DNA of 13,914 nt. Source: a virus (lineage: Duplodnaviria; Heunggongvirae; Uroviricota; Caudoviricetes). Below the pieces are notes generated by a model that did not search any database, had not been told where the DNA came from, and was given only the letters and a program-made list of their open reading frames with translations. Positions 4,199-11,268 of this stretch are shown here, piece after piece (the first letter of the stretch is position 1; the number at the start of each line of letters is the position of its first letter). Position numbers and translations under genes: made by a program. The DNA lies in IMG/VR virus record IMGVR_UViG_2698536392_000012, positions 1-13,914 of that record. One strand, given 5' to 3'.

Positions 4199-4354
4199 TT
4201 ACTCCTCAGGTTCGTAAGCTGTGAAGACAGCGACCTCCGTCTGGCCGGTTCGGATTCGTACCTCGCAGAGGTCTTTCCTCGTTACCAGTGCCGTCACTAT
4301 GACGGTTAAACAGATGACGATCAGGGCGATTAACATCGCCTTTTGCTGCTTCAT
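4199..4354 (-). CDS. hokD: Hok/Gef-family type I toxin (HokD/RelF-like)
   Basis: 51 aa MKQQKAMLIALIVICLTVIVTALVTRKDLCEVRIRTGQTEVAVFTAYEPEE, recognised from recall as HokD/RelF-like. SD AAGGAG 9 nt upstream. The ORF-track in-frame upstream extension (to 4411) is probably not used. Confidence 0.85.
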   Translation of the reverse strand: MKQQKAMLIALIVICLTVIVTALVTRKDLCEVRIRTGQTEVAVFTAYEPEE

Positions 4355-4598
4355 AGCCTGCTTCTCCTTGCCTTTCGGCACGTAAGAGGCTAGCCTACAT
4401 GTGCAAGTCATAGATATGGCCTCAGATTAATGTTAAGCGTCTTGCCGGACGCGTAATGTTAACTGGGGCTTTTCTCTGTCTGCCTTACGGCGGCATGCCC
4501 GAGGCAGACAGCCTCAAGCACCCGCAGCAATTCTACTTAACTCTCGCTTTACAGCAAACCGTTTTTGCCCGATATGGGAATTCCCATACGGAATGAAT

Positions 4599-4703
4599 TC
4601 AGTTCCCCAGGCGATCCATCAAAAACACAACCAGGCAGTAAACACCCACAACAGCAATAACAGCCAGAGCGCCTTCCATTACCAGTGAAATATCATCCGA
4701 CAT
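4599..4703 (-). CDS. Small hydrophobic peptide (34 aa), candidate small membrane protein or type I toxin-like ORF
   Basis: MSDDISLVMEGALAVIAVVGVYCLVVFLMDRLGN: acidic N-terminus plus one predicted TM helix. Very strong SD (AAGGGAGGG) 3-4 nt before the ATG, and promoter-like hexamers upstream. Not in the ORF track because it is under 60 aa. Confidence 0.35.
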   Translation of the reverse strand: MSDDISLVMEGALAVIAVVGVYCLVVFLMDRLGN

Positions 4704-4812
4704 ATTCCCTCCCTTGGTGTGAATTCCGGCGAACGTTTTTACCCCCACCGACAAATAACATATACTAGAAAAGCAATAGCTATAGCAACGCCTGCAAATG
4801 CATCGGGCCGGC

Positions 4813-5646
4813 TCATTGGTGCGCCCCCTGTATCGCTTCTACTGCGATCTGACTGGCGTATTTGTTAATGGTAACGATAAGTTCTTGCTCGGCCTCATCC
4901 AGACAACCACCGATACCTCGCCTGTCACCTTCAGAAGCATCGAAATCTGCACGAACCCTGGCGACCTTCAGGATTGCGGACAACACCTCATCAGGGATTG
5001 CCGGAGAGTTGGTTGACGTTTCCGAGGTTATCCGAAAATTATTGGTTGACGAATTCTTATTTTCCCGAAAGTTTTCGGCATGAAGCATGGCGGTGTTATA
5101 CCCATCCGCGAAAATCTCTGCTTCTTCGTTATTCAGTTCGGCACCAAGTTTAAGCGCAATAGCTTTTGCCATTGAGGCGGTAATTTGATGGCATGGCTGA
5201 CGTCCATGAAGCATGGCGTCGCTCCGCTCTATGCCATCCAGCGCAATTCGAAGCGCATGAATTGTAGTAATGCTATCGTTTGGGGTTATTCCGTATCGTT
5301 CGAATACAGCGATATGGTTGCGCATAATCGCAGGTGTAAGCTCTTTGTAAGCAAGAGCAAGAGGTCCAGATACATCGTTCAGCACTACCGTCATCGGTGA
5401 GGCGGCGTAGACTTCAATAATCCCAGTATCAATAGGCCATTCCCCATCCTTGATATAGTAACTTGTTCCGTCAACTTGCTGTTCTACAATGTGGAAAGCA
5501 CCTATTGGTTCTGCTTCCAGCGATGCCAGTGCAATTTTGAATAACTCGCCCTCTACCCGTGCCATCCCTGAATTGGGGTAGCATTTCGCAATCGCTATTT
5601 TTAATTTGGCTTCTTCGATTAATTTCTCTTTGGTTAATTCAGTCAC
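4813..5646 (-). CDS. Hypothetical protein (277 aa), unknown function
   Basis: Long ORF with a GTG start preceded by a CCGCCC-gaaa-GGGCGG hairpin. No recognised catalytic motif. Co-oriented downstream of the 70-aa and 119-aa genes. Confidence 0.55.
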   Translation of the reverse strand: MTELTKEKLIEEAKLKIAIAKCYPNSGMARVEGELFKIALASLEAEPIGAFHIVEQQVDGTSYYIKDGEWPIDTGIIEVYAASPMTVVLNDVSGPLALAYKELTPAIMRNHIAVFERYGITPNDSITTIHALRIALDGIERSDAMLHGRQPCHQITASMAKAIALKLGAELNNEEAEIFADGYNTAMLHAENFRENKNSSTNNFRITSETSTNSPAIPDEVLSAILKVARVRADFDASEGDRRGIGGCLDEAEQELIVTINKYASQIAVEAIQGAHQ

Positions 5647-5681
5647 TTTTCATTACCGCCCTTTCGGGCGGCCTCCTGACA

Positions 5682-5894
5682 TTAATCGTTGTGATAACTC
5701 ATAGCTTCATTTGCAGCATCAACTGGATCAACATCCCACCAGCAATAATTTGGGTCGACACCTTCAGGTGTCCACGGCTCTAATTCATTTTTTGCTACAT
5801 TCTCGTCACCAGTAATTTTAAAAATCTGCTCAGAGAATTTTTTTACCCACTCGTTATATTTTTCCGCGTTAATGGTTTTCTGTGTATTTAACAT
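5682..5894 (-). CDS. Hypothetical small acidic protein (70 aa)
   Basis: Strong SD (GGAGG) upstream of the ATG. Rich in D/E and W (WTPEGVDPNYCWWDVDPVDAANE). No recognised domain. Confidence 0.5.
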   Translation of the reverse strand: MLNTQKTINAEKYNEWVKKFSEQIFKITGDENVAKNELEPWTPEGVDPNYCWWDVDPVDAANEAMSYHND

Positions 5895-5939
5895 AGATAT
5901 ACCTCCGGTTAAGGATTAAATTTTATTTACAGTGCTGAT

Positions 5940-6299
5940 TTAATATTCAGTTCTGGCTTTTGTTGCCCTGCGTATCCGCGCTTTCGCGTTACGCTCAATC
6001 TGAATTAGCTTTTCTATATTTTTTCGCCTTTCCTGTTCCTCCTGGCGCAATAGCCTTACATCATCTGCCAGTCTGGTTTCTCTTTTAGCCACAGAGAGCA
6101 TCCAGTCAAACGGCTCCACAACTGCACCACAGATTTTGCAGCGGACCTGACGCTCTTTTTCGTCAACCCGGACAGAAGCGTGATGGCAGTATGGTCTTTC
6201 CGATGGCTCATAGAGAAAATTAACCTGATTACGTGGGTCATCCTCTTTTACCGGAAATAAAACGATATTGCTTAACTCATCTTCTGGTTTTATTTCCAT
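5940..6299 (-). CDS. Hypothetical zinc-ribbon protein with basic coiled-coil C-terminus (119 aa)
   Basis: SD AAGGAG 7 nt upstream. C-HH...CxxC spacing (CHHASVRVDEKERQVRCKICG) suggests a zinc ribbon. The C-terminus is Arg/Lys/Glu-rich and helical-looking. Confidence 0.55.
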   Translation of the reverse strand: MEIKPEDELSNIVLFPVKEDDPRNQVNFLYEPSERPYCHHASVRVDEKERQVRCKICGAVVEPFDWMLSVAKRETRLADDVRLLRQEEQERRKNIEKLIQIERNAKARIRRATKARTEY

Positions 6300-6356
6300 G
6301 GTCCTCTCCTTTGATGCGAATGCCAGCGATAATTGAAGCCTGATAGCTAATTTTAC

Positions 6357-6779
6357 TCACAGCCCCCCCCCCTGATAATTTCCCTGATAAAACGCCAGCA
6401 CTCGCTGCATAACTTCGCTCTTCCGGCACTCGCGACAGATTATATTCAGGCGCCTGTCGTAACGACGTATTTCTCCATCAGGTAATGACCAGATAAGGTC
6501 CGGATCAACCGCAGATGGTTTCTTCAGCTTTGCCCTTGAGAGCTTTTTACGGGCATTTTGCCAGTCCTTACGCGCCTGTTCAGACGGGAATAACCCGTAA
6601 CCAGAGTTGTATACATCGCCACTGGCAACCAGCTCTCTGGCCAGAACGCTCATCAGATATCTTGTTGCCCCAGTTTTAGCTTCCAGTTGTCGTAACGTCT
6701 CGCGCCCACTCTGGCGTACGAGTTCAAGAACCTGCCCTTTAATTTTTTCCCGCTCTTCTTGTGTAAAAACTTTTGCCAC
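6357..6779 (-). CDS. Hypothetical protein with putative winged-helix motif (140 aa), in the position of a replication accessory gene
   Basis: GTG start with strong SD (AGGAGG). Follows the O-like gene where lambda carries P. Too short for a DnaC/DnaB-type loader. The 3' end contains a G10 homopolymer on the coding strand. Confidence 0.55.
   Translation of the reverse strand: MAKVFTQEEREKIKGQVLELVRQSGRETLRQLEAKTGATRYLMSVLARELVASGDVYNSGYGLFPSEQARKDWQNARKKLSRAKLKKPSAVDPDLIWSLPDGEIRRYDRRLNIICRECRKSEVMQRVLAFYQGNYQGGGL
6363..6372. repeat. C10/G10 homopolymeric tract at the 3' end of the 140-aa CDS
   Basis: Ten consecutive C on the plus strand (G10 on the coding strand) encoding the GGG of the C-terminal ...QGGGL, ending 4 nt before the stop codon. 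Confidence 0.9.
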
Positions 6780-6819
6780 AAGCCCTCCTGAAAATTACCT
6801 CATGACCAGAAATACACAC

Positions 6820-7890
6820 TTACCCCCTGAAGCCCGGTGGAATTTCGGTATCCGGTTCAGAAATATGATTCACACAACGCTGGTTGTTCGTACCGCTTAC
6901 CGGGAGCAACCAGGGGTTTTCAAAATTCCGGTCCGGTCCAAAAAACGTCGTCGCTCGCTGAACAAATTCCGTTCCCGTTTTCCCGGTAGCCGCCAGGTAT
7001 CTTGCGTAACGCCTCACACCATCCAGCATGGCCTCTGGTGGCACCCCCTCGCGTAATCTGGCCTTCCAGGCACTGAAAGCGGATTTCTTCGGGTTTGCCC
7101 CAGCACGCAACGGGTATTCCCGCCAGACCTGTTCGAACACATCCGGATAATCTACTCGCCCCACAGGCTGCCCGGTGTTTTCCGGGACTACCCGATCGGC
7201 TTCCCGCTGAATGGCGGAATCGGCTTCAGGCTGCTGCAGTTGGTGTGATTGCTCCGGCCTTGCGGTCATCACCTGCTGCACAGCGCCCGAATCGGCTTTC
7301 AGCGCATACGCTGAATCGGCTTCCGGTGTCGTGCCTGCTGGCTGACCAGGATTGACGGTCTGAACATCCCCTGCCTGGTTCGTGGCGTTTTTTACGCCAT
7401 GGACCATAGTGTTTTGATCTTCTTGATCTGTATCTTTATCTGTATCTTTATCTGTCGTGACTCGTCGTGACATGTGCGTGACATTTCGTGACGCGCCGTG
7501 ACAATCGCCATTTTGTTCCCGCTTTCTTTCCCTCTCTCGCTGCGCCCTCTTGCGCTCTGCAGGAGATTTTGCGGTTTGCGAAATATTGCCGTTGTCCTCT
7601 TTCAGCACCTGGCGTTTTTCCCATCCAGTGATTAAATCACCATCAAGTACCCGCCCCTGCATCGTCTGCAAAATTGAATCAATTACCTCTTCTGTCACGT
7701 CGAGCGCACTTGCCAAATCTTCTGTCGTGACATCAATGTGACCTCGCGTGACATTTCGTGACGCGCTCACCAGGAGGTGGATATACACTGCCATCACTGT
7801 TGCAATTGGCTGCCCTGACACCCTGGCAATTGTTCGCCACTTAGGGTCATTTGGCATGTCATGCCATAATCTGAGCCAGGCGTTAGCCAT
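6820..7890 (-). CDS. Phage replication initiator / replisome organiser (lambda O-like), containing the putative origin
   Basis: About 356 aa from the ATG at 7890 (the ORF track starts two codons earlier at a GTG). The coding sequence contains clustered CGTGAC repeats (iterons), as in the lambda O gene. The C-terminal region (YPLRAGANPKKSAFSAWKARL...) resembles prophage replication proteins from recall. Confidence 0.65.
   Translation of the reverse strand: MANAWLRLWHDMPNDPKWRTIARVSGQPIATVMAVYIHLLVSASRNVTRGHIDVTTEDLASALDVTEEVIDSILQTMQGRVLDGDLITGWEKRQVLKEDNGNISQTAKSPAERKRAQRERERKREQNGDCHGASRNVTHMSRRVTTDKDTDKDTDQEDQNTMVHGVKNATNQAGDVQTVNPGQPAGTTPEADSAYALKADSGAVQQVMTARPEQSHQLQQPEADSAIQREADRVVPENTGQPVGRVDYPDVFEQVWREYPLRAGANPKKSAFSAWKARLREGVPPEAMLDGVRRYARYLAATGKTGTEFVQRATTFFGPDRNFENPWLLPVSGTNNQRCVNHISEPDTEIPPGFRG
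7427..7502. repeat. Putative origin iteron cluster 1 inside the O-like gene
   Basis: 12-bp tandem repeat TCTGTATCTTTA x2.4 (7427-7455) followed by five CGTGAC copies starting at 7456, 7466, 7477, 7487 and 7497 (10-11 bp spacing, one helical turn). Confidence 0.6.
7721..7766. repeat. Putative origin iteron cluster 2 inside the O-like gene
   Basis: CGTGAC/TGTGAC copies at 7726, 7738, 7747 and 7757. The 21-bp segment GCGTGACATTTCGTGACGCGC (7746-7766) is an exact copy of 7476-7496. An inverted GTCACG copy sits at 7694-7699. Confidence 0.6.
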
Positions 7891-9272: not shown

Positions 9273-9464
9273 ATGAGTACAGTCCTTTCCCCGATAATTT
9301 CAGAATTTGAAACAATCGAACAAGAAAACAGCTATAACGAATGGTTACGCACCAAAGTGGCAGCAAGCCTCGCAGACCCCCGTCCTGCAATTCCGCATGA
9401 CGAAGTAATGGCTGAAATGGAAAACCTTATTGCGCAAATAGCTTCGACGAACAGGAGTGAGTAA
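9273..9464 (+). CDS. PaaA-like antitoxin (ParE-associated antitoxin)
   Basis: 63 aa. The core SEFETIEQENSYNEWLR...SLADPRPAIPHDEV resembles PaaA2 of E. coli O157 prophages from recall. Strong SD (GGAGG). Its stop overlaps the toxin start (TAATG). Confidence 0.7.
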   Translation: MSTVLSPIISEFETIEQENSYNEWLRTKVAASLADPRPAIPHDEVMAEMENLIAQIASTNRSE

Positions 9465-9754
9465 TGCTGCCCATTTTATGGCTACCTTCTGCGCGTGATG
9501 ATTTGCGTCAGATCGTAGCCTATATTGCCAAGGAAAACCCTCCCGCTGCACGTAGACTAAAAATACGCATTGAAACATCAGTTTTGTCACTTTCTGAACA
9601 TCCTTACCTGTATCCACCAAGCGAAAGAGCTCTAGGCCTTCGTGAGATAGTGACCCATCCTAACTACATAATACTTTACCGAGTAACAGCATCTAACATC
9701 GAGATCGTAAATGTAGTTCACTCACGAAGGCAGTATCCAAACAAAAGCTGTTAA
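9464..9754 (+). CDS. parE: ParE/RelE-superfamily toxin
   Basis: 96 aa with the typical ParE pattern (W.P.A..DL..I..YIA..NP.AA, REIV, NIEIVNVVHSRR). Translationally coupled to the upstream antitoxin. Confidence 0.8.
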   Translation: MLPILWLPSARDDLRQIVAYIAKENPPAARRLKIRIETSVLSLSEHPYLYPPSERALGLREIVTHPNYIILYRVTASNIEIVNVVHSRRQYPNKSC

Positions 9755-11210: not shown

Positions 11211-11268
11211 TTCTGGTGACATTTGGCGGTATCAGTTTTACTCCGTGACTGCTCTGCCGCCCTTTTTT
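11211..11268 (+). ncRNA. dicF: DicF small regulatory RNA (ftsZ-targeting sRNA of Qin-type prophages)
   Basis: TTCTGGTGACATTTGGCGGTATCAGTTTTACTCCGTGACTGCTCTGCCGCCCTTTTTT matches the recalled E. coli DicF sequence nearly base for base, including the GGCGG/CCGCC terminator stem and T-run. Sits immediately upstream of dicB. Confidence 0.8.

Follow-up and report, generated by a model that had tools for sequence, protein, structure and literature searches.

We conclude that p119, p70 and p277, three neighbouring genes of a lambdoid prophage, probably represent three separate accessory cassettes that are shuffled independently in a variable cargo slot, and not one system. Judging by the sequences, these cassettes recombine at conserved junction sequences. 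To estimate co-occurrence, we used a sample of 5,426 complete Escherichia coli genomes. The p119 gene is present in 1,679 of these genomes (31%), the p70 gene in 619 and the whole p277 gene in 25, whereas all three genes are found together in only 13.

The locus and its prophage context

We analysed a stretch of 13,914 nucleotides from an IMG/VR virus record, which is here called the window. The interval with the three genes is 100% identical to E. coli 2013C-4830, as seen from the genome match and the RefSeq annotation of the neighbourhood. The host element is a Rac/O157-type lambdoid prophage, and the three genes belong to its early-right operon, which is driven by pR. They are located between a DUF977/Ren-like gene and hok/sok (Table 1). 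The upstream flank contains a replication initiator and the DUF977/Ren-like gene, and the downstream flank contains hok (Pfam, 2.9e-23) and the sok RNA (Rfam, 111 bits), followed by HTH and ImmA/IrrE genes. A preliminary description, made from the sequence only, had reported three co-oriented minus-strand genes with good ribosome-binding sites between the replication genes and the hok/ImmA morons. The list of open reading frames and the sequence agree on the genes and their binding sites, and the Pfam, PHROG and Rfam matches of the flanks agree on the placement. Composition, alignment and folding show that its accounts of a zinc ribbon, an acidic protein and a hairpin were accurate as well. 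The SD sequences are AAGGAG, 8 nt ahead of the p119 ATG, and GGAGG, 8 nt ahead of the p70 ATG; by inspection, AGGAGG and then a hairpin precede the GTG of p277.

Table 1. Positions of the genes and junctions in the window
Feature	Position	Strand	Remarks
p119	5940..6299	-	119 aa, ATG start, phrog_1621 (9e-57)
p70	5682..5894	-	70 aa, ATG start, phrog_4659 (3.9e-51)
p277	4813..5646	-	277 aa, GTG start, mosaic PHROG matches
Last five codons of p277 and stop (QGAHQ, stop)	4813..4830	-	local alignments
SD-hairpin junction element before p277	5647..5677	-	core 5656-5671, GTG at 5644-5646
p119-p70 intergenic spacer	5895..5939	-	carries the GGAGG SD
Junction upstream of p119	6300..6356	-	AAGGAG SD in ~30 nt common to every p119 context
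Upstream neighbour, DUF977 / 'Ren-like exclusion protein', phrog_142	6357-6779		Pfam and PHROG matches

The content of the slot between DUF977 and hok varies among related prophages, with other inserts in other strains, which makes it a variable cargo slot and agrees with the earlier view that accessory cargo sits here. A consensus scan, too coarse to be sure of picking up a weak internal promoter, detected no signal above chance for a promoter or terminator belonging to p119, p70 or p277. The three genes are thus probably expressed only together with the reading of the early operon. From their sequence context they look like read-through early lytic genes and not like morons expressed in the lysogen.

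Co-occurrence and recombination of the three genes

Scans of Pfam and NCBIfam gave no significant match for p119, p70 or p277, and PADLOC-DB v2 returned 0 defence families at E≤0.1 for the three proteins. PDB sequence searches with the three single proteins and with a 61-member p119 profile found only chance matches to coiled coils and S27e (E > 0.03). The earlier statement that no motif or function could be assigned thus holds against Pfam, NCBIfam, PADLOC and PDB. The PHROG families that match the three proteins are all of unknown function. No homology of the three to NinB-NinH, Ren or other curated families was found in Pfam and NCBIfam, but p277 is homologous to an ordinary prophage family. 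Literature searches retrieved nothing on p119 or p70, and only background on Ea22/DUF551 together with a T4 precedent for split ribosome-binding sites.

The preliminary description saw the interval as accessory cargo, possibly a defence or anti-defence module of three genes. In such a module p119 would be a nucleic-acid-binding sensor, p70 its acidic partner and p277 the effector. Several observations are in line with this: the genes are co-oriented and tightly spaced with a good SD sequence on each, the slot is indeed a hot spot for cargo, and the order p119-p70-p277 is also present on a P1-like plasmid prophage. However, the three genes are not conserved together (13 of 5,426 genomes, compared to the 1,679, 619 and 25 genomes with the single genes), there are breakpoints between them, and homologues of p119 occur in other genera without either partner. 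In addition, PADLOC matches none of the proteins, no own promoter or terminator rises above chance, and p277 is derived by deletion from the very common Eaa/'DUF551 protein' family and shows no purifying selection in its C-terminal module (13 non-synonymous to 2 synonymous changes). We therefore consider a single defence or anti-defence module highly improbable. The preliminary description had itself taken homology to ordinary phage proteins and a lack of conserved co-occurrence as evidence against a module, and by these measures its idea largely fails.

The breakpoints can be illustrated with strain 155. Its p277 gene is 100% identical to the one in the window, whereas its p119 gene differs at 17 positions and its p70 gene at 13. 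This places a recombination breakpoint between p277 and the p119-p70 pair. The two genes of the pair are also found separately: in some prophages p119 occurs without p70 and is followed by DUF7167 instead, and in others p70 occurs without p119 and is placed after DUF977 or DUF4752. Three separate cassettes are thus the reading that we prefer.

The p119-p70 pair

p70 has a pI of 4.36, a net charge of -8 and four Trp among its 70 residues. All 121 organism-named clusters of p70 homologues (E≤1e-3) are assigned to Escherichia, Shigella or 'Enterobacteriaceae', and full-length homologues are at least 76% identical. When compared to three or four other alleles, the dN/dS of p70 is 0.12-0.20 and that of p119 is 0.01-0.17, the latter corresponding to strong purifying selection. 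On this sequence evidence, both p119 and p70 are genuine coding genes. p70 is, by the same kind of evidence, an acidic orphan restricted to Escherichia/Shigella that usually, but not always, lies directly behind p119.

The two genes are adjacent in 476 of the 5,426 genomes, that is, in 77% of the 619 genomes with p70. This could mean a common function and not hitch-hiking. p119 and p70 might then be a functional pair in which the acidic p70 binds or antagonises the basic helix of p119, as a regulator and its modulator or in a toxin-antitoxin-like manner. Three different backbones carry the two genes as a pair, namely lambdoid prophages in the right operon, Stx phage ArgO145 in the left operon and a P1-like phage/plasmid; the two genes are similarly diverged in strain 155, and their charges are complementary (-8 for p70 and +6 for the p119 helix). 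However, p70 is missing from about 72% of the genomes with p119, where DUF7167 or other small genes take its place. p70 is confined to Escherichia/Shigella, whereas the p119 family is spread over the Enterobacterales and even further, and p70 is found alone after DUF977 or DUF4752. Furthermore, physical linkage over 45 bp accounts for co-inheritance without a common function. A functional pair is thus possible but rather doubtful. Concerning the earlier suggestion of an acidic protein beside a partner that looks nucleic-acid-binding, the pairing of p119 and p70 retains some support from the 476 genomes and the three backbones, while its extension to a three-gene module does not stand.

p277 derives by deletion from a common prophage protein family

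We found 6,589 homologues of p277 at E≤1e-3 (best 4e-174), most of them with a C-terminal PF04448 domain. This domain, DUF551, comprises about 68 residues (PDGWISCSERMP...WMPLPEPP) and was used as the criterion for family membership. Thousands of Eaa/'DUF551' proteins (PF04448), including Ea22_V2 of Stx phages and YfdS of E. coli CPS-53, have modules in common with p277 at 45-99% identity. These modules are the N-terminal MTELTKE...KIALASLEAEP, a middle module, an NFRENxNSSTNNFR linker and IPxEVLSAILK...INKYASQ. Over the common modules, p277 is 91-93% identical to two sequences of our data set (P0003 and P0012). The family and p277 show the same mosaic shuffling of modules, but p277 itself is without DUF551: no PF04448 match was detected at E≤0.1, and the family alignment ends in p277 ahead of this domain. 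Ea22 variants and YfdS are the only family members that have been tied in the literature to lysogeny or oxidative-stress phenotypes (PMC10834534).

The loss can be traced by comparison to an intact allele of 463 aa on the P1-like plasmid, which has DUF551 at residues 401-459 (E = 4.1e-9). This allele and p277 have the same 5' 270 codons, and the match of the plasmid to p277 begins at query base 19. We aligned the 3' end of the window interval to the internal part of the long allele (L138) and to the gene end with its downstream sequence (L006). The joint of the deletion lies between 4830 and 4831, where codon ~272 is fused in frame to the last five codons. The end of p277, QGAHQ, derives from the extreme 3' end of the intact DUF551 gene, QEVRQ, each followed by the stop codon. 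According to the breakpoint alignment, p277 lost DUF551 and two further C-terminal modules. From these alignments, p277 is a mosaic Eaa/'DUF551 protein' that lacks its C-terminal modules through an in-frame internal deletion.

The annotation of the gene differs from this result. RefSeq/PGAP has no 277-aa gene; its sole feature there is a pseudogene fragment of a 'DUF551 domain-containing protein', which covers the 3' 288 nt. Based on the alignments we correct the annotation to an in-frame deletion derivative, which is neither a 'DUF551 domain' protein nor a simple fragment. The open reading frame could still be a non-functional remnant, so that the interval would hence contain only two genes. 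In accordance with this, p277 is annotated as a mere fragment by PGAP, has lost DUF551 and two more modules, is rare as a whole gene (25 genomes) and evolves about neutrally in its C-terminal 93 codons, with 13 non-synonymous and 2 synonymous changes relative to the O157:H7 allele. On the other hand, the deletion is in frame and leaves 277 codons open, the SD-hairpin-start element and an ATGA overlap with a small downstream ORF are intact, and other annotations list the full 277 aa as a protein, within a cluster of 52 sequences. Also, a diverged 187-aa gene of O157:H7 has the same deletion joint, which suggests that forms without DUF551 persist. The AlphaFold2 model of p277 has a mean pLDDT of 46.8 and is thus too poor to say anything about its folds; its N-terminal helices are predicted at a pLDDT of 73-90, which also speaks against a remnant. 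Taken together, we regard a pseudogene as a serious possibility that falls somewhat short of even.

p277 further resembles lambda Ea22 and the Ead/Ea22-like proteins (PF13935), which are modular, non-essential proteins of the early operon with a helical N-terminus and exchangeable C-terminal domains. This likeness is one of organisation: p277 has no Pfam match to PF13935, and its BLASTP score against lambda Ea22, 19 bits with E = 0.049 in one pairwise comparison, is not significant. A resemblance of the middle module of p277 to the C-terminal domain of lambda Ea22 is conjectural.

Junction sequences between the cassettes

The start of p277 is preceded by an element that consists of AGGAGG, a G+C stem of 6-7 bp with a GAAA loop, 9 nt and the GTG. 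The hairpin GCCGCCC-GAAA-GGGCGGU has a free energy of -15.5 kcal/mol (centroid structure) and a z-score of -2.3 compared to shuffled sequences; the window has one copy of its 16-nt core, whereas 0.02 copies are expected. The element is invariant in five different gene contexts and present in at least 119 viral contigs of IMG/VR. Among 120 occurrences of the hairpin, 108 have a start codon 6-9 nt past the stem. The genes that follow have 16 distinct 8-residue N-termini, which fall into roughly six to eight sequence types. The distance from the SD to the GTG of p277 is 25 nt when linear and 9 nt across the folded hairpin. A similar arrangement has been described for genes 38 and 25 of phage T4, where a hairpin bridges the spacing between SD and start and reduces it from 22 to 5 and from 27 to 11 (PMC3014915). 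As in T4, the p277 hairpin separates the SD from the start codon and would cut a non-functional spacing to a functional one. In contrast to T4, the element found here is portable, occurring before unrelated types of genes, and its role in translation is a prediction. Since the identical SD-hairpin is found before 16 distinct N-termini, it also marks recombination junctions. From sequence and folding, it probably serves as a split ribosome-binding site and also as a linker for recombination. We rejected an intrinsic terminator as an explanation for the hairpin, as no U tract follows and the start codon comes 6-9 nt after the stem.

Two further junctions adjoin p119. Upstream of this gene, 6300..6356 can be read in another frame (ORF 6277-6429) that ends in ...AGIRIKGEDHGNKTRR and a stop codon. 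This reading corresponds to the remnant of an Ea22-like 3' end. In Stx phage ArgO145, the Ea22-like gene in question comes before p119; the Ea22-like C-terminus used for the comparison ends in ...AGIRIKGEEHGNKTRG and a stop codon. Ea22-like genes flank p119 and p70 in both ArgO145 and the P1-like phage. Downstream of p119, part of the p119-p70 spacer stands alone in many genomes, as short matches to query 214-281 where nothing is annotated, and by its sequence this part is a module boundary.

p119 belongs to a family with a putative zinc ribbon and a basic helix

The p119 family is large, with 1,601 representative clusters at E≤1e-3 (50% identity clustering), it ranges over the Enterobacterales and beyond, it is covered by no Pfam model, and it has no relative of solved structure. 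In the AlphaFold2 model (mean pLDDT 76), residues 1-35 are disordered, ~36-61 form a beta-hairpin ribbon (pLDDT ~65-80) and 63-118 a single helix (pLDDT 93-97). The putative metal ligands are C38, H40, C54 and C57 (CxH-x13-CxxC). In the family alignments the three cysteines are invariant and H40 is found in at least 90% of the sequences; 56 of the 61 family members have CxH...CxxC, 53 with the spacing of 13 residues. The acidic disordered N-terminus bears a conserved ELSNVVxFP motif. The C-terminal 57 residues have a pI of 10.5 and a net charge of +6, and the end of the helix, RRxNIEKLIQIERNAKARIRR, is near-invariant across the family. Fusions of remote homologues involve only upstream Ea22-like/DUF977 genes, and the extensions of longer members match no Pfam family, so that neither offers a clue to function. 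Ea8.5 was rejected as a relative of p119, as there is no similarity.

The best profile and fold matches of p119 are the zinc ribbons of TFIIB and ribosomal S27e, all with scores below the family thresholds. p119 reaches 21.5 bits (E = 1.7e-4) with the TFIIB zinc ribbon PF08271, whose gathering threshold is 29 bits. This is the only profile match in the p119 family (11 of 61 members, best E = 1.3e-5), and the N-terminal ribbon of TFIIB is also the best Foldseek match of the model in the PDB. Like these proteins, p119 is modelled with a ribbon of two knuckles, its CxH and CxxC pairs being joined by a beta-hairpin, but its first knuckle is CxH and not CxxC, and its basic helix of 55 residues after the ribbon has no counterpart there.

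The genomic position of p119 differs between genera. In Enterobacterales other than E. coli, members of the family are usually housed at the end of the nin region, in its last position or positions. In prophages of Klebsiella, Serratia and Yersinia, the homologue is followed at once by a tiny ORF and the antiterminator Q, with gene overlaps of 4 nt. It thereby holds a fixed slot among the classical nin genes (NinB-NinH, YbcO, RusA, YlcG), between the junction resolvase/NinH and YlcG/Q, although its sequence is unrelated to any named Nin protein. In one Mu-like contig, a homologue lies directly after Mor. In E. coli, p119 has been relocated, either into the DUF977-hok slot, ~5 kb from Q, or into the left operon. 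The link to the late switch is thus positional and applies to the other genera only.

These observations raise the possibility that p119 is a transcription factor of the early-to-late switch that contacts RNA polymerase or Q/Mor via a TFIIB-like zinc ribbon. The neighbourhood of Q in three genera and of Mor in the Mu-like contig would fit, and so would TFIIB as the only profile match and the best structural one. However, the similarities are all sub-threshold and generic to zinc ribbons, the E. coli gene is distant from Q or in the left operon, and the place of a gene at an operon's end says little about what it does. We thus consider such a transcription factor unlikely.

Possible roles and significance

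Our proposals on mechanism are drawn from architecture and position. Expression of all three genes would probably be limited to times at which induction or infection causes the early operon to be read, and the proteins would act in early lytic development and not in the lysogen. None of them looks like an enzyme, and stoichiometric binding appears likeliest. p119 may be a zinc-stabilised, probably dimeric adaptor. The contact made by its basic helix end would be with nucleic acid, or else with a conserved component of the host or of transcription close to the early-to-late switch. An acidic decoy or inhibitor is a conceivable role for p70, as is a partner of this basic helix. p277 might be an Ea22-like oligomeric scaffold without its effector end and may be inert; its translation probably depends on the hairpin that shortens the distance between SD and GTG.

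A more far-reaching scenario can be outlined. The p119 family would be a new and widespread phage regulator of the zinc-ribbon/basic-helix type, with p70 as a modulator specific to E. coli. It would use its C-terminal helix and an N-terminal (N/K)(V/I)(V/I)x(F/L)P docking motif to act either at the transition from early to late or on some conserved factor of the host. The SD-hairpin cassette would, separately, be a general split ribosome-binding site and linker for recombination in enterobacterial temperate phages. We give this scenario, as a whole, only a small chance of being correct.

As a candidate defence module, the interval has little importance, as its genes encode hypothetical proteins that are already on record from common E. 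coli prophages and are not a unit. Some nin and ea accessory genes tune the lysis-lysogeny decision and the induction of Shiga-toxin phages. The p119 family is very common, has no curated model and is under strong purifying selection; it is a reasonable target for functional studies of the poorly understood nin/ea genes because of its clear architecture and its recurrent position beside a late-gene regulator. Lastly, the SD-hairpin-start element indicates how small cassettes may be swapped and yet still be translated in lambdoid, Stx and P1-like phages.

Genomic context of the three genes

The block with the genes for p119, p70 and p277 has a 100% identical counterpart on the E. coli 2013C-4830 chromosome and matches a dozen further complete E. 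coli records at 97-99.9% identity. According to RefSeq annotation and our own profile scans of the window, the gene order on the minus strand is Cro-like repressor, YdaT/CII-like protein, replication initiator, DUF977 ('Ren-like', phrog_142), the p119, p70 and p277 ORFs, a small membrane peptide, hokD with its sok RNA, an HTH and ImmA/IrrE pair, DUF968, RusA and antiterminator Q. The array represents the early-right (pR) operon of a lambdoid prophage of the Rac/O157 Sp type. In a consensus scan of 4400-6900, promoters were not in excess and no minus-strand terminator was found, which makes the three genes look like read-through members of this operon.

The gene-level features in the preliminary description agree with the ORF list and the sequence. 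These are the start codons and Shine-Dalgarno (SD) sequences of all three genes, the Cys/His zinc ribbon (C38, H40, C54, C57) and basic tail (C-terminal part, pI 10.5) of p119, the acidic, Trp-rich p70 (pI 4.4, net charge -8, four Trp) and the stable hairpin ahead of p277 (7-bp G+C stem, GAAA loop, centroid -15.5 kcal/mol, z = -2.3).

Features of the block and its surroundings in the window
Feature	Position	Strand	Details
p119	5940-6299	-	119 aa
p70	5682-5894	-	70 aa
SD-hairpin element	5647-5677	-	ahead of the p277 start
p277	4813-5646	-	277 aa, GTG start
25-codon ORF	4739-4816	-	unannotated; starts at ATGA overlap with the p277 stop
34-aa hydrophobic protein (MSDDISLVMEGALAVIAVVGVYCLVVFLMDRLGN)	4599-4703	-	RefSeq hypothetical WP_001278459.1; strong GGGAGGG SD
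Complete hok/sok type I toxin-antitoxin locus	4349-4523, 4199-4411	-	sok RNA Rfam RF01794, 111 bits; Hok/Mok ORF Pfam HOK_GEF, 2.9e-23
RelB/RelE-ParE type II toxin-antitoxin pair	9273-9754	+	RefSeq annotation of identical region
DicF antisense sRNA	11211-11262	+	RF00039, 77 bits; left arm

The 34-aa protein is kept directly upstream of hok/sok in all related prophages examined. dicB lies close to DicF in the matching RefSeq record, as is typical for Qin/Rac-type prophages, and the RelB/RelE-ParE pair adjoins the CI-like repressor gene, directly downstream. The 3' end of the DUF977 gene contains ten consecutive G (6363-6372, minus strand) 3 nt ahead of the stop codon, where the O157 allele has GGAGGCGGTA; the run is a potential slippage site. 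DUF977-p119 fusion proteins are present in databases (P0160, P0162 and P0181).

Co-occurrence of the three genes

The preliminary description had also suggested that the three genes form a module, possibly for defence or anti-defence. Their co-occurrence argues against this: among 5,426 complete E. coli genomes, the whole block is found in 13, compared to 1,679 with p119, 619 with p70 and 25 with a whole p277 gene (pieces of p277 occur in 1,041). The same gene order is present on the P1-like plasmid pAUSMDU00014361_02. Strain 155 has the p277 of the window unchanged, with 17 differing positions in p119 and 13 in p70. The identity, architecture, distribution and mosaic history of the block, and the deletion in p277 described below, are shown by the data; a single defence module comprising all three genes is very improbable.

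Only for p119 and p70 does an association have some support: the two genes are adjacent in 476 of the genomes. This pairing is asymmetric: 77% of p70 genes adjoin p119, and 28% of p119 genes adjoin p70. p70 is also found without p119, after DUF977 or DUF4752, and at loci that lack p70, DUF7167 and another small acidic protein come after p119. We consider it rather unlikely that p119 and p70 are a real pair.

p277 as a deletion variant

p277 has 6,589 homologues, nearly all called 'DUF551 domain-containing protein' or 'Eaa protein', and most carry PF04448 at the C-terminus. In the alignment, p277 has the N-terminal, middle, linker and penultimate modules of its relatives and ends where these enter DUF551. 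On the P1-like plasmid, the ORF of its counterpart extends to 463 aa, with DUF551 at 401-459. By local alignment, window positions from 4831 upwards match the interior of this long allele, and 4813-4830 with everything downstream matches an intact DUF551 gene in its last five codons (QEVRQ and stop) and 3' flank. This places the joint exactly, and p277 is therefore an in-frame internal deletion, a shortened version of a known family.

The identical joint is found in O157:H7, in a 187-aa gene that has diverged. Between this allele and p277, the shared C-terminal module has 13 non-synonymous and 2 synonymous changes and shows no sign of constraint. PGAP annotates only a pseudogene fragment at p277, and its AlphaFold2 model is poor (mean pLDDT 46.8), the only confident part being the N-terminal helical hairpin. 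p277 resembles Ea22 in kind, as a modular early protein, yet the Ead_Ea22 profile does not match it, and its similarity to lambda Ea22 is not significant. Ea22 proteins are tetramers that favour lysogeny, and their C-terminal domains are exchangeable, with DUF551 in one variant (PMC10834534). p277 would be an Ea22-like scaffold minus its effector end and may be inert; we rate the chance that it has no function at somewhat below even.

The 25-codon ORF at the p277 stop (MSRPDAFAGVAIAIAFLVYVICRWG and stop) probably encodes a genuine small membrane peptide that is translationally coupled. On the P1-like plasmid, a related hydrophobic ORF (MSWPEAFATVGIVMAAALGLYSICRWW and stop) overlaps the stop of the intact DUF551 gene, and O157 strains conserve the DNA of the 25-codon ORF 3' of their DUF551 or Eaa genes.

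Conservation of p119 and p70

We compared p119 and p70 to alleles from a Stx phage, a P1-like phage and two chromosomal prophages. Both are under clear purifying selection (dN/dS of 0.01-0.20 across the two) and are thus real genes. p119 has no match in Pfam, NCBIfam or PADLOC models, a TFIIB zinc-ribbon model reaches 21.5 bits, which is under its cut-off, and p119 matches phrog_1621, a PHROG of unknown function. The 149 clusters of homologues from a word-indexed search all belong to Enterobacterales; with a profile search, 1.84 billion representatives yielded 1,601 clusters at E<=1e-3, of which 241 reached E<=1e-10. Among 61 diverse family members, the three Cys are invariant, the His is present in at least 90%, and 53 have the pattern CxH-x13-CxxC. 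A C-terminal motif, approximately E(R/K)NxKAR(L/I)RR, persists across these members, and half retain an N-terminal (N/K)(V/I)(V/I)x(F/L) motif. Within Enterobacterales, the helix RRxNIEKLIQIERNAKARIRR is nearly invariant, with the remaining protein down to ~45% identity. The AlphaFold2 model (mean pLDDT 76) has a disordered N-terminus, a small ribbon and one helix at 63-118 (pLDDT 93-97). Sequence and fold searches with p119 found no characterised relative; the family is large and has neither a curated model nor any functional study.

The position of p119 homologues is recurrent: they are located between YbcO or NinG and YlcG, followed by Q (Klebsiella), between RusA or NinG and a 52-aa ORF, followed by a Q-like protein (Serratia), after NinG and NinH and before a 75-aa ORF, followed by Q (Yersinia), or immediately after Mor (a Mu-like metagenomic contig), usually with 4-nt overlaps with their neighbours. 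The gene is relocated in E. coli, where it follows DUF977 in the window and in O157:H7. Ea22-like genes precede it both in Stx phage ArgO145 (left operon) and in a P1-like phage. About 30 nt 5' of p119, including the SD, move along with the gene, and in the window these still code for the tail of a former Ea22-like neighbour.

For p70, the sole match is phrog_4659. The homologues of p70 (121 clusters with an organism name at E<=1e-3) are all from Escherichia, Shigella or 'Enterobacteriaceae', and full-length homologues have at least 76% identity. In Stx phages (L002, phage ArgO145, 7654-8005) and many chromosomes, two additional small proteins, both very acidic, come after p119 or p70, namely DUF7167 (60 aa) and one of 58 aa; successive small acidic proteins recur across this cassette array. 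In an ETEC strain (locus L147, NZ_LR882990.1, 979-2462, plus strand of the locus), the DUF977-to-hok slot has two opposite-strand genes directly after p70, coding for hypothetical proteins of 310 and 184 aa. Nothing in the window resembles true moron or defence cargo as closely as this insert does.

A recurrent SD-hairpin element

The sequence AGGAG(G/A)-CCGCCC-GAAA-GGGCGG-TA is invariant in five contexts in which the preceding gene, the following gene or both differ. An exact-match scan found it in at least 119 IMG/VR contigs (L018-L136). A start codon follows in 109 of the 120 listed occurrences (102 ATG, 7 GTG), located 6-9 nt past the stem in 108 of these. The ORFs after the element in the listed occurrences have 16 distinct 8-residue N-termini, representing ~6-8 sequence types; the most common is a DUF7167-type 60-aa acidic protein (MRKFKIII...; 49/120). 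The p277 GTG is a point variant of the ATG in the O157 EDL933-type allele.

An intrinsic terminator was ruled out because no U tract comes after the hairpin. In the window, the SD and GTG are separated by 25 nt, or 9 nt with the 16-nt hairpin folded out. T4 genes 38 and 25 have hairpin-bridged ribosome-binding sites with this geometry (PMC3014915). The widespread element behaves as a portable cassette head; we infer that it is a candidate translation-initiation head that moves between genes, and a candidate identity stretch for cassette recombination.

Possible functions

The three proteins would be made early after induction or infection and may act via binding rather than catalysis. For p119, we tentatively propose, as a possible but not favoured reading, a zinc-stabilised, probably dimeric adaptor whose basic helix would touch nucleic acid or a conserved host or transcription component near the early-to-late switch. 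p70 could interact with p119 as its partner or serve as an acidic decoy. RefSeq already lists the three sequences as hypothetical proteins, and all are covered by catalogued PHROGs. The block belongs with the lambdoid ea/nin accessory cassettes, a known kind.
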